This document shows positions 1,191 through 21,218 of a stretch of DNA of 21,970 bases, one piece after another. The stretch is from sequence record NZ_CP014059.2; one strand, 5' to 3'. Source of the DNA: a plasmid. Below the pieces are notes generated by a model. The model saw only the letters and a program-made list of their open reading frames with translations, was not told the DNA's origin and made no database searches. How positions within the stretch are numbered: the stretch's first letter is position 1; the number at the start of each line of letters is the position of its first letter. Made by a program: the position numbers and the translations under genes.

Positions 1191-1976
1191 TCAGCGGGTC
1201 AGTTCGAGCCAGTTCTTCGGGCTCGCCGTGCGCTCGATCCTGGATTCCCTGGAAGTCGCGCCGGCGGCCTGCTGTTGCGCCTCAAGGTCGGCCTGCGCCT
1301 GCATCCTGGCGGTCGCGGCGTTCTGCTGCGCGATCAGCAGGCCGCGAATCTGCAAGAGCTGGTTCGCCTGGTTGGCGGCGAGCTGGTTGGCGAAGCCGAT
1401 GGCCTGCATCTGCCCGGTCGCACCCTGCGCGGCCGACTGGAGCCGTTCGAGCTGGCGAGCGTCGGCGGTAAGGTTGCGCTGCTGTTGCTCCAGACCCTTG
1501 AAAAGCGCGTCGTTCGCCTTCTTCTGGCTCTCGCTCGCCAGGCGGCGGTTCTCTTCCATCGCGGCGCGCTCTGCATCCGAGCAACCGGCGGCCGAGAAGC
1601 ACGGCGAGCCACGGTAATAGGCCACGTCCTGGAACTTGCCCAGGTAGCTGTCGAGACTGCCGAGCTGGTTCCGGTAGTAGTCCAGCGTGTTGACGGCATT
1701 CATCAGCCCGTTGATCGTGGACTGCGCCTGATCCCAGATGTAGGCCGCCGGGGCCATCGTGTTTTGCAGCATGTTCTCGTACTGCTGCAATTGGGTCTGG
1801 TACTGCTCGATCTGCTTGAGCGTCTGCGCCACCGACTCGATGGCCGTCATGACGTTCTGCACCAGGTTGCCGCCGTCGATGACGGGAATGCCGGCCTGCG
1901 CCGGGGTAATGATGATGCTGCCGGCCAGGGCAGCGGCGAGCGCGGTTTTAGCCGCTAAAAGGCGGACGTGTTTCAT
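1191..1976 (-). CDS. trbJ: TrbJ (VirB5-like minor pilus/Mpf protein, 261 aa)
   Basis: Signal peptide followed by a Q-rich coiled-coil region (QLQQYENMLQNT). Gene order is as in IncP-1. A GAGG Shine-Dalgarno lies upstream of the ATG at 1976. Confidence 0.85.
   Translation of the reverse strand: MKHVRLLAAKTALAAALAGSIIITPAQAGIPVIDGGNLVQNVMTAIESVAQTLKQIEQYQTQLQQYENMLQNTMAPAAYIWDQAQSTINGLMNAVNTLDYYRNQLGSLDSYLGKFQDVAYYRGSPCFSAAGCSDAERAAMEENRRLASESQKKANDALFKGLEQQQRNLTADARQLERLQSAAQGATGQMQAIGFANQLAANQANQLLQIRGLLIAQQNAATARMQAQADLEAQQQAAGATSRESRIERTASPKNWLELTR
1947..1959. promoter_or_regulatory. KorB operator (OB) consensus TTTAGCCGCTAAA, inside trbJ codons 6-10
   Basis: Exact match to the IncP-1 OB palindrome TTTAGC(G/C)GCTAAA. 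Confidence 0.8.
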
Positions 1977-2152
1977 GGTCGAGTACCTCGATGTGATGAG
2001 CGGCTAATCTGCCCCACGACCTACCGACAAGGCTGGTCATGGGGTTGGGCCATCACGAGACAGTTCGCCACGAAAAGACTGTCAAGGTACCCGCCCAGGA
2101 CGACACCGTCGCGTCCGGGCTTACGTTTTTGTTGAACATCGGTGTAAGCTAA

Positions 2153-2180
2153 CTAGCTGCTATATAGCTTCTAGCTGCTA
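2153..2180. promoter_or_regulatory. Two direct copies of CTAGCTGCTA (2153-2162 and 2171-2180) upstream of trbJ; putative operator
   Basis: The same 10-11-bp motif recurs at 9141-9172 and 10131-10141 in other promoter regions. Confidence 0.5.
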
Positions 2181-2218
2181 ATTCGGATGCTAATCGAACA
2201 TCCGAGAATTCGCAAGCG

Positions 2219-4048
2219 TCATCGCCCGCGCTTCTTGCCCTCCTGGCGTTTCGCCTTCTTGGCTTCCATCTGCGCCCGTAGCCGCGTCTCGCGCTGTTCC
2301 AGCTCGGACGGCGCGGGCCTGGCCGGCTGCTGAACTTTGGCCGGCGGCGGTGTCGGGGTGGCCTGGGTCGGCGCTTGTACCGGCCGCTGGGCTTCGCCCT
2401 CGATGTGCAGCCCGTCGAGCTGGCCCAACGTGCGCAGGCCGTGCCGGCGATGTGGCGGCGGCTCCTGGCCGACAGGGGGCACACCTGGCCGGCGCTTGGC
2501 CTGGGCCTTGGTGGCCTCGGCCTGCCGCCGGCTTTCCAGTGCCGGATCGGCGAAGGTGATGGGGAGCTGGGCATCGACGGCCGCCCGGATCACGGCGGCC
2601 TTGAACTCCACGCTGCCGCTGACAGTGATGCGCTCGCCGTAGCGTTCCATTGCCAGGCGCAGCGCCGCCGCCACGCCGGCGCGGTCGGCCTGGCTGGACA
2701 CGGCCAGGCGCTCGCCGTCATCGCGCACGGCCGAGCTGCCGGCGCGGTAGATGATCGTGCCCTTCTTCGTGATGCTGTCGATCACCGGGGCATGGCCGGG
2801 CTTCGCCTGGCCGTCGCCCTGGATGGTGTCGCCCTTGAGGCCCTGGGCCGCCTCGCGGGCGCGCAGCGCATCGAGCGCCTGGCCGTCGCCGGCCGTTGCC
2901 TGCTGCTTGAGCCAGTCGGCCCACGGCCGCCGGCGGTGCTCGTTGTAGATCGCCGCCCGCTCCTGGTCGTGGCGCTTGTGGATCGCCTCCAGGTCGGCCC
3001 GCAGAGCGGCGCTGGCCTGGGCATACAGCAGCTTCTTGGTCAGCCGGCCATCGGTCAGGTGCTTGATGGCCGCCCGCCGGGTGGCCGCCGCCTTCTTGGC
3101 GTGCTCGATGGCCCGATCCTTCCGGCGCTTCGCCTCGGCCAGCACGCCGGCCCTGGCGGCTGTGAGGGTCTGCTGTGCGCCCTTGTACCGGGCGTAAAGC
3201 TCGGTCGTATCCAGGCCGCCGCGCAGACGCATCGGCCGGCCCTTCTGGTAGTTGCGCCGTGCCGGCGCGGCCTGGCGCTCGGGCGACGCCTCGAACGTGC
3301 CAAGCCGCTTTTCCAGGGCGGGCTTGGACAGGTCGCGGGCCAAGGTGCTGGCCTTGATGATCGTGCCGTCGCCGGCCTCGATGACCAGGCCGTTACCGCG
3401 TGCGCGCAGCGCCAGGCCGTTGTCGCGCATGACCTGGTGCAGCTCGGCCCAGCTTGCCGCGTCCTTGATCTCGTCCAGGCACTCGCGCTTGATCCAGCCG
3501 ACCAGGCTTTCCACGCCGGCGTGCTGCTCCAGGTCGCCAGCCCTGGCGGCCGCGCCGCGCTGGCGTGGTTCGTGGTTGTCGCGTTCCAGGCCGTAGTCGC
3601 GTTCCAGGGTCGTGCAGAGGTCGGCCAGCGCCCGATGCGAGTAGTACGGCTCCTGCATCGTGCCCCTGGTCGGGTGAATCTTGTTGATGGCGATGTGGAT
3701 GTGCAGGTTGTCGGTGTCGTTATGCACGGCGCTGACGCGCTGATGCTCGCCCAGGCCCAGCCCGTCGCAGATGCGGGCCTCGATCTGCCGCAGGGTGTCG
3801 GCGCTCGGCTGCTCGCCGGCGCGAAAGCTGACGATCAGGTGATAGGTCTTGTCGCCCTTGGCCCGCGTGTTGGCCTGCTGGGTTGCCAGTACCTCGGTGA
3901 TTGCATCGCGCACGGTGTCGGCGGCGCAGTTCGTGACCTGCACCTGGCCCAGCCGGTGGTCTTTGCTCTGCGCGTCGGTGACGTAGCGCACCAGGCCGGC
4001 GAAGTCGGACTTGCCCAGCGAGCGCATGGGCACGTGCTTGGCGATCAC
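2219..4048 (-). CDS. traI: TraI relaxase, MOBP / IncP type (609 aa)
   Basis: N-terminus MIAKHVPMRSLGKSDFAGLVRYVTD is near-identical to RP4 TraI, with the catalytic Tyr at position 22. The His motif HNDTDNLHIHIAIN is present. The start overlaps the traJ stop. Confidence 0.93.
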   Translation of the reverse strand: MIAKHVPMRSLGKSDFAGLVRYVTDAQSKDHRLGQVQVTNCAADTVRDAITEVLATQQANTRAKGDKTYHLIVSFRAGEQPSADTLRQIEARICDGLGLGEHQRVSAVHNDTDNLHIHIAINKIHPTRGTMQEPYYSHRALADLCTTLERDYGLERDNHEPRQRGAAARAGDLEQHAGVESLVGWIKRECLDEIKDAASWAELHQVMRDNGLALRARGNGLVIEAGDGTIIKASTLARDLSKPALEKRLGTFEASPERQAAPARRNYQKGRPMRLRGGLDTTELYARYKGAQQTLTAARAGVLAEAKRRKDRAIEHAKKAAATRRAAIKHLTDGRLTKKLLYAQASAALRADLEAIHKRHDQERAAIYNEHRRRPWADWLKQQATAGDGQALDALRAREAAQGLKGDTIQGDGQAKPGHAPVIDSITKKGTIIYRAGSSAVRDDGERLAVSSQADRAGVAAALRLAMERYGERITVSGSVEFKAAVIRAAVDAQLPITFADPALESRRQAEATKAQAKRRPGVPPVGQEPPPHRRHGLRTLGQLDGLHIEGEAQRPVQAPTQATPTPPPAKVQQPARPAPSELEQRETRLRAQMEAKKAKRQEGKKRGR

Positions 4049-4422
4049 GATTGCCCGCCTCGCGGCCGCACCACGCTTTCCGCGATGGTGCTGATCTTGT
4101 CCTGGGTCGCCTCGATCCGGGCCAGCAGCGCCCGGATGGTGTCATCGCCGAAGCGGGCCGTGCGCGGGTCGTCGGTCAGCCAGAGCTTGAGCAAGCCGCC
4201 CAGCCGCCCGAGGTCGCCATTCACGCGCACCAGGTCGCGCACGTTCTCGAAGTCGGTCACGCCTTTGACCTGGTAGCCCTGACCGACCGCCAGCAGGTAG
4301 GCGGACGTGCTCATGCCGGCGGCCTGGGCGTTGGCCTCGATGGCGGCCCGTTCGTCCGGCAGGCAATAGACCTTGATGGGCGTGCTGCCCTTCCTCGTTA
4401 CCTTGTTCTCGTTGGCCTCCAT
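4045..4422 (-). CDS. traJ: TraJ oriT-binding relaxosome protein (125 aa)
   Basis: The segment IKVYCLPDERAAIE...GMSTSAYLLAVGQGY...INGDLGRLGGLLKLWLTDDPRTARFGD is almost identical to RP4 TraJ. Confidence 0.92.
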   Translation of the reverse strand: MEANENKVTRKGSTPIKVYCLPDERAAIEANAQAAGMSTSAYLLAVGQGYQVKGVTDFENVRDLVRVNGDLGRLGGLLKLWLTDDPRTARFGDDTIRALLARIEATQDKISTIAESVVRPRGGQS

Positions 4423-4508
4423 CTTGGCGTCCTCTGTCGTTGCCGGCGGCCGCCGGCTGGCCCCGCAGGGCAGGATGCCCCGTTGAGCGCCGCAGGCGCG
4501 AATAAGGG

Positions 4509-4568
4509 GAAGTGAAGAGGATCACCATGCTTGCATGGTGGGCCTACTTCACACATCCTGCCCTCTAT
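4509..4568 (+). other. oriT core: imperfect inverted repeat 4511-4552 and nic region CTTCACacATCCTG|CCC, with the nick predicted between 4560 and 4561 on the + strand
   Basis: The RP4 nic region is CTTCACCTATCCTG|CCCGG. The neighbouring AATAAGGGgAaGTGAAGA and GGTGGGCCTACTTCAC are also conserved. It lies between divergent traJ and traK, as in IncP-1. Confidence 0.9.
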
Positions 4569-4777
4569 TCAGCGTTGCATTCAATAAGGAAACTATACAC
4601 GCGCCATTGTGGATTTGCATGGTATCTAGCAAGGAAACCTAGCGCCTATGGATGCAACACGGCAAAATGCAGGGAAATCCGCTTGCTCGCAGGACTTAAC
4701 ACGCTGTTTCAGCGCACATTCCATGTGCTTTCCACTAGCTTTACACACATGAACCCGCGCGCATTACATAAACAGGA

Positions 4778-5425: not shown

Positions 5426-6346
5426 TCACTCGCCGCCTGGCTTCTTCCTGGTCGCAGGCTTCGCCTCGGCCGCCGGCGGCGTGATACGGGCCAGCAGCGC
5501 GGCAGATTGCTCCTTGAGCGTGTCGAGTTGCCCCGCCATGCGGGCAGCTTCCTCACGAGCCTGCGCGGTGGCCTTCGCGGCCTGATCGCGCTCGGCCTGC
5601 GCTGCCGTCAAGCGTTCTGCCATACGCTGCGCCTCGACCGCTGCGGCCTTCCGCTGCTCCTGGTGCGCTTCGCGCTCGGCATCGGCCTTGGCGCGGACGG
5701 TCGCCAGTTCCTCGCGCACCTGGTCAAGTTGAGCGGCGACAGCCTGGCCGGCTTTCTGCTGGTCGGCCAGCGCCCGGCGTGCTTGGTCTGCGTCCTCGTG
5801 GGCGCGGTCAAGTTCGGTGCGCAGCTCGCCGGCCCTGGCCTCGGCCGTGGCGGCCCGCTCACTGGCCGCTGCCAGCTCTTGGCGAACGGCGGTGAGTTCC
5901 TGGGCCAACTTTTCGGCGGCGGCCTTCTCAGCGGTCAGCTCGGCCGTGGTCGCCTCCAGCTCGCCGGCCTGGCGCTCGAAAGCCTCGGCCAGCTCCTGCC
6001 GCATCGCGTCCAGCTCGGCCCGCTCTGTTTCCCATGCGGCCTGTGCGCTGCGCAGGGATTCGTTCGCCAGCTCCTGGGCCTGCTGCCAGATCGTCGCCAC
6101 GGCGGCGCTGCTGGCCTGCTGCACGACCTCCGGCACCGCCACGGCCACCGGGGCGGCCTGGGCAGTCTGCGCCCTGCGCCATTCCTTCATCACGGCGCTG
6201 GCTGCGTTCATATCTACGCGGGCGGCCCGGCGCACCGCATCGACCGTGGGCATCGTCTCGCGGCCCGACTGCTCGAAAAGATCAGTGGCGGCGGCAATGA
6301 TGCGCTCGCGCACGTCGGCGGGGATTTGGGGGGCTTGCGGTGTCAT
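5426..6346 (-). CDS. kfrA: KfrA-like alanine-rich coiled-coil DNA-binding protein (about 306 aa from the ATG at 6346)
   Basis: Long Ala/Glu/Gln/Arg-rich coiled coil. The N-terminal wHTH-like segment is VDAVRRAARVDMNAASAVMKEWRR. It is convergent with traK, as in IncP-1. An autoregulatory palindrome lies upstream. Confidence 0.8.
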   Translation of the reverse strand: MTPQAPQIPADVRERIIAAATDLFEQSGRETMPTVDAVRRAARVDMNAASAVMKEWRRAQTAQAAPVAVAVPEVVQQASSAAVATIWQQAQELANESLRSAQAAWETERAELDAMRQELAEAFERQAGELEATTAELTAEKAAAEKLAQELTAVRQELAAASERAATAEARAGELRTELDRAHEDADQARRALADQQKAGQAVAAQLDQVREELATVRAKADAEREAHQEQRKAAAVEAQRMAERLTAAQAERDQAAKATAQAREEAARMAGQLDTLKEQSAALLARITPPAAEAKPATRKKPGGE

Positions 6347-6399: not shown

Positions 6400-6624
6400 T
6401 ATGCAAGCCATTATTTTCCGCATGGCCTGGATCAGCCCGGCCGGGAGCGCGTCGGGGGTCGAAATTCGGGCCTGGGCGGGCCGTGGCGGCGTTTTCCAGG
6501 GTTGGCGGCACTATCCCCTACCCTCGCCCGGTTTCGGGCGTCCTGGGCGTTTCTACGCGGCCGATCTCCGGCGCAAACGAAAAAAGCCAGACCACGGCCG
6601 GCCTGGCTTCCCCTTGGCGTCAGA

Positions 6625-6637
6625 TTTAGCGGCTAAA
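6625..6637. promoter_or_regulatory. KorB operator (OB) TTTAGCGGCTAAA
   Basis: Exact OB consensus. It lies about 280 bp upstream of the kfrA start and immediately 3' of the small gene 6640..6948. Confidence 0.8.
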
Positions 6638-6639
6638 AA

Positions 6640-6948
6640 TTAGGTCGCGGCCTGTAGGCGCTTCACGGCTGAAACGAAGTCCAGGCGCAGCAGGTGCATG
6701 GCAAGGTCGATGGCACCACCGCCGCCCTTCTCTGCGCGGGTGTCGTACCACTTCGGCCCGGTCGCCAGCAGCTCCACGCCACCGCCACCCAGCGCGACAT
6801 TCACCCGCACCGTGGCCTTGTCCTTGATCGGTTTGAAATCCGGGTCGTACTTCCAGTAGAGGCCCAAGAGATCGAGCGTGGCCGTTACCTGCATCGCGTG
6901 CAGGCGTGCCAACAACTCCGGCGGGAAAGCTCGCCGGGCGCGGCTCAT
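6640..6948 (-). CDS. Small protein (102 aa from the ATG at 6948) with a degenerate, cysteine-less CHC2 primase zinc-finger-like segment
   Basis: High GC3 real-gene codon usage. KWYDTRAEKGGGGAIDLAMHLLRLDFVSAV resembles the zf-CHC2 tail CFGCGagGDvIDFvm but lacks the cysteines. It is adjacent to the PrimPol rep gene. Confidence 0.45.
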   Translation of the reverse strand: MSRARRAFPPELLARLHAMQVTATLDLLGLYWKYDPDFKPIKDKATVRVNVALGGGGVELLATGPKWYDTRAEKGGGGAIDLAMHLLRLDFVSAVKRLQAAT

Positions 6949-6949
6949 G

Positions 6950-7280
6950 ACAACACCCCGGCGAGCTGGACGAGGGAGCCGCCCTTCGGGCGGCGGGCTA
7001 CTCCGGGCCTTCGGCCCCTCCGCGCCGTTCCGGCGCTGCGCGGCCCGTGGATAACTTGCAAGCAAGTTACCCACCGCCCTTGCCGGCTACTCGCGTTATA
7101 TAAACGCAGGGGGCTACTCCGGCCTACGGCCGAGGCGGACAAGCCGCTAGGCTTCGCCATTAGTAATACGGACGGACTTGTCTCAAGCATTGTGGCCGCC
7201 CTCGTCACTTCCGGCGATGCTGGCCAGGTCGGCCGCCTGGGCCTGTAATACGGATGGACTTGTCTCACTCGCCGGCGCGG
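6950..7280. other. Candidate vegetative origin (oriV) / rep-proximal repeat region
   Basis: It contains a UUCG-loop hairpin at 6978-6994. It has a 21-22-bp direct repeat GGGCTACTCCGG(G)CCT(T/A)CGGCC at 6995-7016 and 7111-7131. A DnaA-box-like cGTGGATAA sits at 7046-7054, next to the palindrome TAACTTGCAAGCAAGTTA at 7052-7069. An A+T palindrome GCGTTATATAAACGC is at 7093-7107. A 23-bp direct repeat GTAATACGGA(C/T)GGACTTGTCTCA at 7163-7185 and 7245-7267 overlaps the 3' end of rep. Confidence 0.4.
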
Positions 7281-8565
7281 CTGGCTTGCCAGCTCGATAC
7301 CAGCTCGCCCGGCTCATACCGAGGGCTTCCCAAGGCTTCTGCCGGCTCAAGGAGCGGCTTTCGTAGGTTTGCCGATCTACCGCCCCAGCAGCCCGCCGGC
7401 GGGCCGTGTGGCGCTCTCTGTCGCGCTCCTTCGCCATATCCGAGCTGATGAGCGTGCGGAGCTTGCGCTGTTCCTCGTCGGTGATCTGGAACAGGCTGAT
7501 GATGGTGTCGTTCTTGGGCGTGTAGAGCGGGGAAAGCTGCTTGCCGCCGAACTCCACTTTCTCGCCGGCCTCGTGCGCCTTTGCCTTGGCGTACAACGTC
7601 ATCAGCTCCTTGGAGCGATACGACCAGGCCGGATCAAGCTCGCCGGCCAGCGCGGCCGCCTCGTGGTACATCTGCCCGCTGTGCGTAGCACCAGACAGCA
7701 GCAGGAAGTTGAGACGCCAGAAAAGATGCTGCATCCGCTCGCCTTCCCTGACGCCACCGCGCAGCTCGGCCAGCTTGCGCAAGTCCTCCAGGCGATCCCA
7801 TGCGAGCTGCCGACCGGAGAAGCCGCGCAGGTTGTCGGCCTTGCCGCCTGGCAATAGCTTGAGCTGCCGGCGTTCGGCACGGTCGCGGCGTTGCTGCTCG
7901 ATGTCCCAGCGGGCTACTGGCAGCAGCATTTCAGCCAGGTACTCGAAACCGTAGCGGACGGGCTGGCCGTCCTGGCCGTGCTCGACATGCACCACGCGGC
8001 ACACATCGCCGCTCTTGGTATTCACGGTGCTGACCAGGCGCAGCACGCGGCTTGCGTCCTTGGCCTGGGGGTCGGCGCCGAGGCCGGCCAGGCGATCGAC
8101 AAGATACCGCTGGCAGGCGTTCCAGCGCGGCAGCGCCTGGCGCGGCAAGGTGCCGTCCAGCAGCCACTTGGCTTGTATGCCGCGGCCGCTATAGACCAGC
8201 AGCGAGGGCGTGGGGATGCCTTCCTGGGCGCAGTGGTACAGCACGGTGGCCGCCAGTTGCTCCGGCGTCCTGCCGGTGGCCCACGGCTGCCGGTAGGTGT
8301 CCAGGTCGGCGAACAGCAGCCCGACACGCGCCAGATTCACCACGCGCCGGTTAGGGCGCATGAACTCGGCCTGCGTCAGCCAGGTGTCGCGGGTCTGATC
8401 GACCATGCCCAAGATCGTGGGCATGTCTGTGAGCCTGTATGAGTCTTGCCGCTTGTCCTTCCCTACCGCGACCAGGAGCGAGAAAAAGCCCGTCCTGGCC
8501 GTGTCATGGTAGGTGCCGGCCTCGTCGGCCGGCTCGAACAAGGCAAGTTGTGCCTGTCCTGCCAT
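7183..8565 (-). CDS. Replication initiator with archaeo-eukaryotic primase-polymerase (PrimPol) motifs (about 460 aa from the ATG at 8565); not TrfA
   Basis: PrimPol motif I is VGLLFADLD, motif II is YSGRGIQAKWLL and motif III is VLRLVSTVNTKSGDVCRVV. N-terminal QLALF resembles the QL[SD]LF beta-clamp motif. An AAGGGG Shine-Dalgarno lies upstream. The promoter region carries a KorA operator. Confidence 0.6.
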   Translation of the reverse strand: MAGQAQLALFEPADEAGTYHDTARTGFFSLLVAVGKDKRQDSYRLTDMPTILGMVDQTRDTWLTQAEFMRPNRRVVNLARVGLLFADLDTYRQPWATGRTPEQLAATVLYHCAQEGIPTPSLLVYSGRGIQAKWLLDGTLPRQALPRWNACQRYLVDRLAGLGADPQAKDASRVLRLVSTVNTKSGDVCRVVHVEHGQDGQPVRYGFEYLAEMLLPVARWDIEQQRRDRAERRQLKLLPGGKADNLRGFSGRQLAWDRLEDLRKLAELRGGVREGERMQHLFWRLNFLLLSGATHSGQMYHEAAALAGELDPAWSYRSKELMTLYAKAKAHEAGEKVEFGGKQLSPLYTPKNDTIISLFQITDEEQRKLRTLISSDMAKERDRERHTARRRAAGAVDRQTYESRSLSRQKPWEALGMSRASWYRAGKPAAPASETSPSVLQAQAADLASIAGSDEGGHNA

Positions 8566-8630
8566 AACCCCTTCCCGCACGGAATCCGCGCGTGACTCTT
8601 GCCATTGAAGGGGTCAGGCCGTAGAATGAG

Positions 8631-8642
8631 GTTTAGCTAAAC
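8631..8642. promoter_or_regulatory. KorA operator (OA) GTTTAGCTAAAC in the rep promoter region, flanked by 10-bp inverted repeats GAATGAGGTT (8624-8633) / AACCTCATTC (8668-8677)
   Basis: Exact 12-bp IncP-1 OA consensus, 66-77 bp upstream of the rep ATG. No korA gene is present in the window. Confidence 0.8.
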
Positions 8643-8730
8643 AGTCGTGGGTGCGGTTGAACCCATAACCTCATTCATCGGCTGTCGTGTCTATCAGCTC
8701 GCCAAAGCTGGTAGGCCCGGAACCCCCGCC

Positions 8731-8766
8731 AAAGCCCCGTCGCCAAACGGGGCTTTTGCATTTTTA
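8731..8766. terminator. Rho-independent terminator hairpin AAAGCCCCG-tcgccaaa-CGGGGCTTT followed by TGCATTTTTA; bidirectional
   Basis: Perfect 9-bp stem and a T tract. It lies at the 3' end of the minus-strand gene 8764..9078 and separates that gene from the rep promoter. Confidence 0.6.
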
Positions 8767-9078
8767 CGGCTCGATGCCGGTGCCACCCAGCAACTCGCCA
8801 CCTTTGCGGGTCAGCGTCTTGGGCTTCCACCCGGCCACGTCCGCCTCGAAGCGGTAGATGCCGTGCTGAATCAGCAACGACGCCGCCGCGTCAATCGTGC
8901 GGAAGTAGCGGGGGCCGCCCCGATACTGCCCAAGGATGCGATTTTCTCCGCCGATCCGAAGCGCCAGAACCAGGCCCTTCTCTGCAACGGTGACAGTCGC
9001 ACCCTGTACGCCGCCCACCAAAACGACCTCCTTAAATGCGGTCGGATTGATGACAGCCTTTGAATCAAACGTAATCAT
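8764..9078 (-). CDS. Hypothetical protein (104 aa), function unknown
   Basis: Real-gene codon bias. Its own promoter region (9079-9161) has a CATAAT -10 and overlaps the CTAGCTGCTA motifs. A terminator lies downstream. The opposite-strand ORF 8647..9063 has poor codon usage. Confidence 0.5.
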   Translation of the reverse strand: MITFDSKAVINPTAFKEVVLVGGVQGATVTVAEKGLVLALRIGGENRILGQYRGGPRYFRTIDAAASLLIQHGIYRFEADVAGWKPKTLTRKGGELLGGTGIEP

Positions 9079-9172: not shown

Positions 9173-9491
9173 ATTGTTCGTAATGGTCAAGGGCCTTTTC
9201 CAGTATCTCGACCAGCAGCACACCTTCACGCTGCGCCAGGGCGCGGATGCGGGCATCCCATTCCGGCGTCACCCGCGTGGCGAACTGCACCGTGCGGTTC
9301 GTCTTGCGGGCGCTCCGGCCGTCGATCTTCTTGGCCGCCGGCGCTTGCGGTGGTGGGTTGGCGGCGGCCGGCCTGGCTACCGGTGCAACCTCCGGCGCGG
9401 TCAGGTTCGTGCTGGCCTCGTCCAGCGTCGGCGGTGCGCCCAGCTCGTCGCGCCGGCCTTTCAATTTCTTGAGCTTGGATACGTCAGCCAT
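9162..9491 (-). CDS. parG: ParG-like ribbon-helix-helix centromere-binding protein (109 aa) with a flexible basic N-terminal tail
   Basis: C-terminal RHH is RTVQFATRVTPEWDARIRALAQREGVLLVEILEKALDHYE. It overlaps the upstream parA by 8 nt. Confidence 0.7.
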   Translation of the reverse strand: MADVSKLKKLKGRRDELGAPPTLDEASTNLTAPEVAPVARPAAANPPPQAPAAKKIDGRSARKTNRTVQFATRVTPEWDARIRALAQREGVLLVEILEKALDHYEQSSS

Positions 9492-10116
9492 TTGTCACCC
9501 GGTCGATGAGCGATTGAATGAGTGTGTCGGCCCGCTCGTTCAGGCCCGCAAAGCGGGTTTCTGTGATGCTGTGGCCGGTGTTTTGCGCCTGGCGGTAGGC
9601 CGGCCGGTCGCGCAAGCTCCCATCCAGGACGGTGTAGCCGGCCTGCTGTAAATAGACCCGCGCCGCGACCTCTTCCGCCGGCGTGCCGATGCGGTTGAGG
9701 GCGAACGCCAGGCGGTCGTTCGGGACACCGGCCTTCGTCAGCGCGTGGAACTCGCGCACGGCCGGAATGAGGTCATCCCTCGATGCGCCGGACGGCTGCA
9801 CGATCAAATCGGCAGCGCGGGCTATGTCGAGCGTCGCCGAGCTGGTGCGGGCCGGCCCGTCGATGATGAGAAGGTCGTAACCCTTGGCCGCTTCCAGGGC
9901 CTGCGCGGCCGTGGCGAACGCCTCGACGGACACCACGGGTTCAATGCCCTGGGAAAGCCGCAGGCGGTGCCAATCGACAGCAGTTCCCTGCTGTGTATCC
10001 AGGTCTGCTACCTTCACGCGCAAGCCGCCGGCGGCCGCTTCGCGTGCAAGGGCACGCGCCAGGGTGGATTTCCCTACGCCGCCCTTCTGTGAGACGAATG
10101 CGACAATCGCCGCCAT
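9484..10116 (-). CDS. parA: Small ParA/ParF-type partition ATPase (210 aa)
   Basis: Deviant Walker A VSQKGGVGKST. The size and the parA-RHH operon structure match type Ib partition systems. Confidence 0.85.
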   Translation of the reverse strand: MAAIVAFVSQKGGVGKSTLARALAREAAAGGLRVKVADLDTQQGTAVDWHRLRLSQGIEPVVSVEAFATAAQALEAAKGYDLLIIDGPARTSSATLDIARAADLIVQPSGASRDDLIPAVREFHALTKAGVPNDRLAFALNRIGTPAEEVAARVYLQQAGYTVLDGSLRDRPAYRQAQNTGHSITETRFAGLNERADTLIQSLIDRVTNG

Positions 10117-10124
10117 AATTTAGC

Positions 10125-10192
10125 CCCTATCTAGCTGCTAGGTAGCAACGATTATAAGATAGAAGCTAGATACAAGATAGTAGCTAGATAGA
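10125..10192. repeat. Centromere/operator-like array upstream of parA: CTAGCTGCTAG, then repeated AGATAG and CTAGATA units
   Basis: Clustered short direct repeats lie between the parA start (10116) and the KorB operator. A TATAAT -10 (10151-10156, minus strand) is embedded in them. Confidence 0.5.
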
Positions 10193-10193
10193 T

Positions 10194-10206
10194 TTTAGCC
10201 GCTAAA
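10194..10206. promoter_or_regulatory. KorB operator (OB) TTTAGCCGCTAAA
   Basis: Exact consensus. It overlaps the resolvase stop codon and lies 78 bp upstream of the parA start. Confidence 0.8.
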
Positions 10207-11107
10207 GTTTGCGCCGCCGCGCCCGCTCGGCGTCTGCCAGGTCGCCGGGCCACGTCGCCAGCTCGTCATCGGTGAGGGCCGCCAGGATTTGCGGCAGGTT
10301 TTGGGTTCGGTACGGGGGCATCGGCAGATCGGCGACTGGGCCTTCATCGTCCAGAAAAGCCGGCTCGGGCAGCTCGGCCGCGCCCTGCTCCACGTCGGCC
10401 GCCGCGCCGGCGTCGGCCTCGGTCAATGCGTCCTCCACGAAAGCGCCATGCCTGGCCGCCTCGGCCCGGCTCATGTCACGGCTGGCCCAAATCCGTTTGA
10501 CCTGGGCCACGCTGCACCCGGCCAGCTTGGCAGTCTCCGCGATGCTCTGGCCGATGCTGCGCAACGCGATCACCTGGGCGCGCAGCTTCGGATCGGCCCG
10601 CCGGCCCTTGTAGCGGCCGTCCCGCTTCGCCAGCTCGATGCCCTGGCGCTGCCGCTCGCGCCTGTCCTCGTAGTCGTCGCGGGCCATCTGTAGGGCCAGC
10701 TTCAAAAGCATGTCCTGGACGGATTCCAGGACGATCTTGGCGACGCCCTGGGCCTCGGCCGCCAGGTCGGATAGATCGACCACGCCAGGGACGGCCAGGC
10801 GCGCACCCTTGGCCCGGATCGAGGCCACCAGGCGCTCGGCCTCGGGCAAGGGTAGGCGGCTGATGCGGTCGATCTTCTCGGCAATGACCACCTCGCCCGG
10901 TTGCAGGTCGGCCACCATGCGCAGCAGCTCGGGCCGGTCAGCGCGTGCGCCGCTGGCTTTCTCGCGGTAGATGCCGGCGACGTAGTACCCGGCGGCCTTC
11001 GCGGCCGTGATGATCCCTTCCTGGCGTTCAAGGTCTTGCGCGTCGGTGCTGACGCGCAGATAGACCCGCGCCACCATCGGCGCGGCTGCTGGCTTCGTCC
11101 TGCTCAT
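10202..11107 (-). CDS. Serine recombinase / resolvase (301 aa from ATG 11107, AAGGAG Shine-Dalgarno) with a long acidic C-terminal extension
   Basis: N-terminal catalytic motif YLRVSTDAQDLERQ. The HTH is GQSIAETAKLAGCSVAQVKRIW. It is divergent from the TA module across the res region, like the RK2 par/mrs layout. Confidence 0.85.
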   Translation of the reverse strand: MSRTKPAAAPMVARVYLRVSTDAQDLERQEGIITAAKAAGYYVAGIYREKASGARADRPELLRMVADLQPGEVVIAEKIDRISRLPLPEAERLVASIRAKGARLAVPGVVDLSDLAAEAQGVAKIVLESVQDMLLKLALQMARDDYEDRRERQRQGIELAKRDGRYKGRRADPKLRAQVIALRSIGQSIAETAKLAGCSVAQVKRIWASRDMSRAEAARHGAFVEDALTEADAGAAADVEQGAAELPEPAFLDDEGPVADLPMPPYRTQNLPQILAALTDDELATWPGDLADAERARRRKL

Positions 11108-11125
11108 TCTGGCTCCTTTGGGCAT

Positions 11126-20663: not shown

Positions 20664-20897
20664 CTACGCGGTGAGTGACTGCCGCACCGCGTCCAGGGCC
20701 TGGCGGAAGTCGTCCCGCGTAGCCTGGCCCGTCTCGGCCTGGTAGTACAGCACCATGAACATATTGGCGACGGCTTCCGCCATCGGCGAGAGCTGCCGCG
20801 CCGCCTCTTGGTCGATCCAGTCCAGGGCCGCGAGCTGTGCGGCCGCATGATGGACTGCCTGGGTTGCGATTGCATTGGTAGGATTCAAAGTTGCCAT
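20664..20897 (-). CDS. Hypothetical helical protein (77 aa)
   Basis: GAGGTGA Shine-Dalgarno upstream of the ATG. A terminator lies downstream. Confidence 0.5.
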   Translation of the reverse strand: MATLNPTNAIATQAVHHAAAQLAALDWIDQEAARQLSPMAEAVANMFMVLYYQAETGQATRDDFRQALDAVRQSLTA

Positions 20898-20960
20898 GAT
20901 TCACCTCTGTGGTAGGTGGGTTGTGGAAGTGTCGGCCGGCCCCACGCCGGCCGGCGCGCT

Positions 20961-21218
20961 TTATCGCTGGCCGCTGCTGTAGATGCCGGCGGCCTCGGCC
21001 AGCGGCGTGTTCCTGTTGCTGCCGCTGTAGCTGTTGCTCGATGACTTGGCCGCCGGCCTGATGGCCTCGATGGCAGACGGGGCAGGGCGATCAACGAAGG
21101 CCGCCACTTCCGCCGCTGCATCAAGCTCGGTTGATTGATCGCCAGGCTGCTCAAACTCCACCGCCGGCCGCTGCACCTGGTCGAGCGCCAGGCAGTCGAA
21201 AAAGCCACTACGTTTCAT
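20961..21218 (-). CDS. Hypothetical protein (85 aa from ATG 21218), translationally coupled to the 3' end of trbL
   Basis: A GGAGG Shine-Dalgarno lies 9 nt upstream. The ATG at 21218 is 2 nt from the trbL stop codon (21221-21223). It occupies the position where IncP-1 has trbM. Confidence 0.5.
   Translation of the reverse strand: MKRSGFFDCLALDQVQRPAVEFEQPGDQSTELDAAAEVAAFVDRPAPSAIEAIRPAAKSSSNSYSGSNRNTPLAEAAGIYSSGQR

Follow-up and report, generated by a model that had tools for sequence, protein, structure and literature searches.

We analysed a stretch of 21,970 nucleotides of plasmid DNA (sequence record NZ_CP014059.2), called the window below, and were concerned mainly with its replication region. 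This holds an initiator gene, rep, a small open reading frame (ORF) downstream of rep, an origin at the 3′ end of rep, and a promoter region with operator sequences identical to those of IncP-1 plasmids; the features are listed in Table 1. The three par genes form a consecutive cluster directly upstream of rep, which is the IncP-6-type arrangement, and the synteny of parA, the parB-like gene, parC, rep and the small ORF agrees with that of IncP-6, for which the parABC-rep cluster was defined (PMC4785139). We read 6625-8766 as a theta replicon of IncP-6/IncU (IncG) type, belonging to the pMATVIM-7 / p07-406 lineage and driven by a four-part initiator of the archaeo-eukaryotic primase (AEP) class, and give this reading a probability of about 0.78.

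Table 1. Genes, origin elements, operators and transcription signals of the replication region and its surroundings (positions in the window).
Feature	Position	Strand	Remarks
OB-like site	1947-1959		inside trbJ 5′ end, as in R751
KfrA-like gene	5426-6346	minus	
Terminator-like hairpin and T-run of rep / small ORF	6584-6604	minus	intrinsic type
OB-like palindrome TTTAGCGGCTAAA	6625-6637		exact match; 2 bp past small-ORF stop, before terminator
Small ORF, 102 amino acids	6640-6948	minus	putative accessory protein; predicted cysteine-less DnaG zinc-binding-domain fold
Two GC-rich hairpins containing TTCG	6978-6994, 7005-7017		stems conserved, one loop base varies in relatives
Imperfect palindrome with DnaA-box-like site	7042-7079		
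DnaA-box-like TTATCCACG	7046-7054	minus	8/9 match
AT-rich palindrome GCGTTATATAAACGC	7093-7107	none	flanked by GGCTACTC / GAGTAGCC repeats (region 7082-7119)
Core origin motif GAGACAAGTCCGTCCGTATTACTAATGGCGAAGCCT, 37 bp	7149-7185	minus	overlaps rep stop codon
rep, 460 amino acids	7183-8565	minus	465 amino acids if started at upstream GTG
Second origin-repeat copy	7245-7267	minus	inside rep 3′ coding region
Sigma-70-like promoter TTGCCA-17-TAGAAT	8599-8627	plus	10/12 match; directed away from rep (antisense)
KorA operator (OA) GTTTAGCTAAAC	8631-8642		exact IncP-1 sequence; at about +1 of antisense promoter
Candidate antisense RNA, about 130 nt	8634-8766	plus	opposite parC-rep junction
Intrinsic terminator and T-run	8731-8756	plus	ends candidate antisense RNA
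parC	8764-9078	minus	NCBIfam ParC NF041544, 6e-36
parB-like gene, 109 amino acids	9162-9491	minus	
parA	9484-10116	minus	Pfam CbiA/ParA
(G)ATAG(A/T)AGCTAGAT-type repeat array	10125-10192		just upstream of parA
OB-like site	10194-10206		upstream of parA; overlapped by stop codon of 307-residue serine-recombinase ORF

The relatives of this region place it readily. Over positions 6400-9000 identity is 100% with Xanthomonas perforans pLH3.4 and also, starting at 6539, with Acidovorax sp. T1 p3-T1; it is 96-98% with Pseudomonas aeruginosa plasmids that belong to the pMATVIM-7 / p07-406 / pPE52IMP lineage. No single PLSDB record covers the whole window, the best being p3-T1 (85% at 100% identity) and pLH3.4 (79%). 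Rep is 78% identical over 450 amino acids to the Rep of Rms149 (IncP-6) and 70% over 444 amino acids to RepB of RA3 (IncU), and tblastn found homologues in 1338 PLSDB plasmids (nearly full length in 357), with Clostridium plasmid proteins of 25-28% identity among the matches. MOB-suite labels such records 'IncP', a known error for IncP-6 (PMC12452181). That RepB of RA3 is an initiator has been established in experiments (PMC9455977), and the replicon and oriV of plasmids of the Rms149/RA3 type have been characterised by experiment (PMC9455977; PMC4785139). AEP ancestry too has been reported, IncP-6 initiators having been connected to PF03090, the ColE2 replicase family, with an HHblits value of 98.4% and a PriCT domain (bioRxiv 10.1101/2024.09.03.610885). 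The replicon is thus a known, experimentally studied one that is filed as an IncP-6/IncU variant, and the novelty that a preliminary description of this DNA had seen in a PrimPol replicon falls away.

The three AEP motifs and the N-terminal pentapeptide described earlier for Rep are all present at confirmed coordinates: LLFADLD (residues 83-89), SGRGIQAKW (126-134), LRLVSTVNTKSG (175-186) and QLALF (6-10). Key residues are invariant among 37 homologues of 71-88% identity, namely D87, D89, D170, S126-G-R-G, Q131, R173, R176 and N182, so that Rep has the DxD of motif I and the acidic residue of motif III with RxxRxxxxxN. Structure prediction bore out that Rep is not TrfA and gave a clear AEP fold of the PrimPol clade. 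In the model a disordered tail with QLALF is followed by an AEP primase domain (about residues 25-215), a helical PriCT-like domain (about 250-345) and a helix-turn-helix (about 385-430), a putative counterpart of the ColE2 Rep origin-binding domain. The preliminary description had made a missing Prim-Pol HMM match its ground for giving up the idea; there is no such match, yet the fold is clear, and that test would have led to a wrong rejection.

QLALF fits the consensus for beta-clamp binding that is known from TrfA and Hda. It is encoded at about 8536-8550 (minus strand) and lies in the low-confidence, disordered tail of the model. A Q[LIM]xLF sequence occurs within the first 40 residues of 32 of the 37 homologues, and the counterparts in RA3 and Rms149 are QLSLF and QLRLF. 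The QLSLF motif is mentioned in two papers (PMC8034659; PMC7049699), and we found no report of a clamp-binding-like motif in the Rep family in the searchable literature.

Comparison with relatives puts the origin at the rep stop codon, much as the preliminary description had it over the 3′ end of the gene; a 2022 paper on this lineage found neither iterons nor an origin (PMC9501424). The GAGACAAGTCCGTCCGTATTACTAATGGCGAAGCCT block at 7149-7185 is nearly invariant among the window, Rms149, RA3 and five other plasmids. Since it is kept though the overlying reading frame differs among plasmids, we take it to be a cis-acting DNA element. Part of it returns as a 23-bp direct repeat, GTAATACGGAyGGACTTGTCTCA, at 7163-7185 and 7245-7267, with 22 of 23 nucleotides identical and a spacing of 82 bp; Rms149 has the same tandem arrangement at a spacing of 49 bp. 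The two window segments align with the tandem copies of Rms149 and with RA3 1303-1340. [quoted passage not shown] By analogy with that AT-rich region, the AT-rich palindrome region of the window (7082-7119) is a candidate unwinding element; GGCTACTC has three copies in the origin region. In plasmid pIC001B of Acinetobacter johnsonii the origin motif occurs a third time, immediately before the small ORF.

Other origin features described earlier (direct repeats, a DnaA-box-like site, palindromes) were found as well; the exception is the supposed UUCG hairpin, which is not a canonical tetraloop. The loops of the two GC-rich hairpins are a 3-nt TTC or a 5-nt CTTCG (CGAAG when read along the rep-sense strand). 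The arms of the imperfect palindrome at 7042-7079 covary between lineages: both change jointly in pXCARECAE29 and pIC001B (GTCAACGC...GCGTTGTC), while TTGTCCAC(A/G), that is TT(A/G)TCCAC, is retained. A lone 8/9 DnaA box has no significance by itself. The AT-rich palindrome, the palindrome at 7042-7079 and the GC-rich hairpins are common to the window and its closer relatives, and the KorA operator, the 23-bp repeat and the palindrome keep their positions in diverged relatives.

The only good sigma-70-like site in 6500-8800 is the one pointing away from rep. Both its hexamers are kept in all seven relatives, including Rms149 (TTGTGC-17-TACAAT). The candidate antisense RNA that it would start has a predicted folding energy of -59.2 kcal/mol (z = -5.9 against shuffled controls). 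Among seven sequences its terminator hairpin is invariant and its middle hairpin has a few compensatory changes, so few that covariation support is thin. The layout has a parallel in RA3, whose divergent repX promoter yields an antisense RNA with a strong determining effect on incompatibility (PMC9455977). On the other side of the unit, the hairpin past the small ORF is probably the end of the rep / small-ORF transcription unit.

The KorA operator that had been assigned before to the rep promoter lies at the antisense promoter and is indeed exact and conserved; its coordinates had been about 1 nt off, and the 10-bp inverted repeat said to flank it, GAATGAGGTT (8624-8633) and AACCTCATTC (8667-8676), does not flank it symmetrically, the left arm overlapping the operator. 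GTTTAGCTAAAC has a single match in the window even with two mismatches allowed, and the identical 12-mer is found in R751 at korAp and trfAp. OA is kept in five of seven relatives (L002, L006, L007, L010 and pIC001B, a plasmid without transfer genes), whereas Rms149 and X. vasicola pXCARECAE29 (L008) lack it. Three exact KorB operators (OB), TTTAGCSGCTAAA, are found where 0.09 would be expected. Ten OB sites of R751 are identical to this sequence. The site just 3′ of the small ORF keeps its position in six relatives (pXCARECAE29, pIC001B, L002, L006, L007 and L010). Five OB-type sites were seen in pMATVIM-7.

No cognate regulator was found for these operators. By tblastn, R751 KorA, KorB, TrbA and KorC had no homologue in the window, in pMATVIM-7 and pIC001B (both searched complete), in the part of p3-T1 outside the window match, in pLH3.3 or in the first 50 kb of pLH3.1; the best E value was 0.039, for a short KorC match in p3-T1. 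RA3 KorA and KorB, searched likewise against the window, pMATVIM-7, pIC001B, Rms149 and related loci, gave a 26-residue match at best (E = 0.089). An IncU legacy of the operators is ruled out, as RA3 has no IncP-1-type OA or OB. Two ORFs were considered as OA/OB binders encoded in cis: the 307-residue ORF at 10202-11125 is a serine resolvase instead, and a 202-residue ORF of pMATVIM-7 belongs to no family. Upstream of parA there are TAGCTAGATA-type repeats that resemble sites of the small ParB and differ from OB; the small ParB-like protein probably has its operator/centromere in the array at 10125-10192, distinct from the adjacent OB-like site.

Given these searches, the wiring of the replicon into the kor regulon, asserted in the preliminary description, is unproven: no korA, korB, trbA or korC homologue turned up in the sequences searched. 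Its 'replicon swap' is unproven too, the cassette of operator, rep, origin, small ORF and operator being found also in plasmids without IncP-like transfer genes. One such plasmid is pIC001B (L009 / L012), where the same parABC-OA-rep-ori-orf-OB cassette lies at 1348-4720.

The small protein has no cysteine at all, and the earlier suggestion of a cysteine-less relative of a primase zinc finger is supported by its predicted fold and by fusions to initiators. Its best and sole full-length structural match is a primase domain, and the model has the zinc-ribbon fold of the DnaG zinc-binding domain. Sequence profiles were silent: none of 39 family members matched Pfam PF01807 (zf-CHC2) at E values up to 10, Pfam and NCBIfam scans with the single sequence and with the whole alignment gave no family and nothing relevant, and a profile search of PDB sequences gave no match. 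The 39-sequence alignment has neither Cys nor His among its invariant and nearly invariant columns. Searched with a profile, 1.84 billion representatives yielded 494 relatives. Eight of these are fusions of 650-790 amino acids (P0299, P0305, P0341, P0347, P0354, P0367, P0369 and P0377) with an N-terminal part 30-38% identical to the window Rep and the small domain at the C-terminus. P0331 joins it C-terminally to a PF03090 Replicase and PriCT_1 protein, while P0294 has it N-terminal to a PF10134 RPA initiator. In the three fusions examined for it (P0331, P0341 and P0294), the segment aligned with the zinc finger lacks cysteine in every case. Being fused to three kinds of plasmid initiator, the small domain is tied to replication initiation. 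As a separate gene it adjoins the origin in 193 intact plasmid copies, and the Rms149 version is 75% identical.

These features suggest how the replicon might work. Rep would bind the 37-bp site over its own stop codon, since the same motif is the minimal oriV in RA3, and the second copy 82 bp upstream. It would then open the adjacent AT-rich palindrome and, by analogy with ColE2 Rep, may lay down the primer itself. The primer could pass to DNA polymerase III (Pol III) by way of the clamp motif; we infer such a hand-off because a preliminary repB-DR2 replicon of RA3 replicated in an Escherichia coli polA strain (PMC9455977). The 102-residue zinc-less homologue of the DnaG zinc-binding domain would work with such initiators, yet it is dispensable. 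Read-through from parABC, together with the conserved divergent antisense-RNA promoter, probably governs rep expression.

Several points weigh against this reading. Neither Pfam nor NCBIfam gave Rep a match to an AEP family (the Pfam hmmscan taking in the 37 homologues as well), the sole relevant matches of the family being to the C-terminal helix-turn-helix. The Rep model is of moderate quality (predicted local distance difference test, pLDDT, 66; predicted template modelling score, pTM, 0.39), and hhalign of the shallow Rep alignment (effective number of sequences 1.7) against a single PF03090 / ColE2-type member was uninformative. Motif II, sGxGxH elsewhere, is SGRGIQ in the Rep clade, and with His replaced by a Gln that is invariant in the 37 homologues catalytic competence is not assured. 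No primase activity of RA3 RepB has been reported, and the word 'primase' does not occur in the RA3 paper (PMC9455977). The clamp-binding-like motif is a pentapeptide and nothing longer, and a rep-sense promoter was not located in 6500-8800. As to the small protein being a core partner, RA3 has no copy of it, and in many IncP-6 KPC plasmids a transposon splits the ORF in two; 'orf1', as it is called there, is disrupted in pCOL-1 and p10265-KPC (PMC4785139). Absent from the one and split in the others, the protein is dispensable and not a core partner.

The Gln of motif II could mean that Rep is a degenerate AEP that does no priming: it would bind and melt the origin, host DnaA would act at the palindrome, and DnaB and DnaG would then start synthesis as in classical iteron plasmids. 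The DnaA-box-like site conserved within a covarying palindrome is consistent with this, as are the independence of the preliminary RA3 replicon from DNA polymerase I (Pol I), unlike ColE2, and the fact that the literature examined holds nil biochemical primase data for the Rep family. We nevertheless hold it unlikely: the three acidic residues and the Arg and Asn of motif III are invariant, also in homologues of 30% identity, which is unexpected for a dead enzyme, the RA3 row of the alignment has no equivalent of the DnaA-box-like palindrome, and the box matches at only 8 of 9 positions. One homologue of about 30% identity, P0341, has the canonical motif II SGRGLH. That the small ORF is a passenger beside the origin, unrelated to replication, would suit its absence from RA3, its interruption in many IncP-6 plasmids that replicate (PMC4785139) and its want of a Pfam family. 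Against a passenger stand the fusions of the same domain to three kinds of initiator (the eight Rep homologues, P0331 and P0294), the origin-adjacent position in all those intact copies and the primase domain as best and only full-length structural match, and we consider it very unlikely.

The operators allow a further reading, in which OA and OB are working control sites read in trans, the cassette being a satellite replicon in which KorA and KorB from an IncP-1 helper in the same cell repress the rep and antisense promoters; KorB, loaded at 6625-6637, would travel 2 kb to KorA at 8631-8642. For RK2 it is established that KorB slides over long distances and is captured by KorA (PMC11790492), one OA and three OB are exact and identical to the R751 operators, OA and the OB of the small ORF are intergenic and fixed in position in diverged plasmids with different backbones, the backbone has IncP-type traI/J/K and trbJ/K/L, and the cognate genes were not found in cis. 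Yet no IncP-1 plasmid was seen in the one closely related host strain examined, X. perforans LH3 (pLH3.3 and the first 50 kb of pLH3.1), Rms149 and pXCARECAE29 lack OA but have the same promoter, the OB in trbJ may be inherited with the gene, and another plasmid protein could bind OA and OB. Control in trans is in our view a doubtful possibility. A combined proposal goes further: a satellite cassette that reads its helper, with KorB sliding 2 kb to KorA and copy number coupled to the helper, a hitherto unrecognised accessory subunit of AEP-type plasmid initiators that resembles the zinc-binding domain, and hand-off to Pol III via QLxLF. That all of this holds together seems distinctly unlikely.

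Plasmids driven by this replicon include vehicles for the spread of VIM, IMP and KPC carbapenemases in Pseudomonas and Enterobacterales as well as effector plasmids in Xanthomonas. Three features appear to be undescribed in the searchable literature, with earlier mention of the operators or small ORF possible in older Rms149 and p07-406 papers: the zinc-less partner resembling the zinc-binding domain, IncP-1 operators without Kor genes, and the clamp-binding-like motif. The first, a primase-finger domain lacking zinc, is widespread and unannotated, and it either accompanies three kinds of plasmid initiator or is fused to them. Exact KorA and KorB operators where no Kor gene was found suggest cross-talk between plasmids, and a conserved clamp-binding-like motif could account for the ability of an AEP initiator to function independently of Pol I.

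Beyond the replicon, the backbone includes genes of IncP type (traI/J/K and trbJ/K/L). Collinearity of the window with X. perforans pLH3.4 over its full length is ruled out, as it breaks down past about 11.3 kb. The 38.7-kb record of pLH3.4 (L001) has an AraC regulator, IS6100, trbK, traJ and traK annotated twice, about 19.37 kb apart, a pattern suggestive of either a dimer that has partly diverged or an artefact of assembly; there is no internal duplication in the window. The serine-recombinase ORF of 307 amino acids (10202-11125, minus strand; Pfam Resolvase and HTH_7) is absent from the PLSDB gene table for pLH3.4. Two Rfam matches are above the gathering score: traJ-II RNA upstream of traJ (4459-4563, minus strand, 109 bits) and the antitoxin RNA PtaRNA1 (20891-20961, plus strand, 85 bits).

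The Rep of ColE2-P9 is a protein of about 35 kDa with His in motif II, and its replication depends on Pol I. Unlike that protein, which consists of the PF03090 Replicase, PriCT and a C-terminal DNA-binding domain, the window Rep has no PF03090 match by hmmscan and has Gln in motif II, and its RA3 relative differs from ColE2 in the polA result noted above (PMC9455977). Compared with the DnaG zinc-binding domain (zf-CHC2; PDB 1d0q and 2au3), the small protein has no cysteines and hence no CHC2 zinc site, and it stands alone or is joined to an AEP or RPA initiator, not to Toprim; Pfam zf-CHC2 does not match it. IncP-1 plasmids (RK2/R751) are like the window in having identical OA and OB, with OA at the promoter of the replication gene, as at trfAp, and OB near the trbJ 5′ end (R751). 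The window differs from them in that its initiator is not TrfA, no korA, incC, korB or trbA was found, and partition is by parABC of the pRA2/IncP-6 type. RA3 differs in having repA (HigA-like), DR1/DR2 repeat arrays and its own KorA, KorB and KorC, and in having neither the small ORF nor IncP-1-type OA/OB, while the window has parABC upstream and a duplicated origin motif. RA3 is like the window in its 70% identical initiator, in the GAGACAAGTCC...TATTACTAATGGCGAAGCCT core at the rep 3′ end, its minimal oriV, and in a weak rep promoter set against a stronger divergent antisense-RNA promoter (PMC9455977). Rms149 lacks operator sequences for KorA and KorB, its rep-orf spacer is much shorter and free of palindromes, and it carries an IncQ-type mob region, not IncP-type tra/trb. 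It shares with the window the order parA, parB-like gene (annotated ParG in Rms149), parC, rep and small ORF, the 78% identical Rep and 75% identical small ORF, the tandem origin repeat, and the antisense promoter with its terminator.

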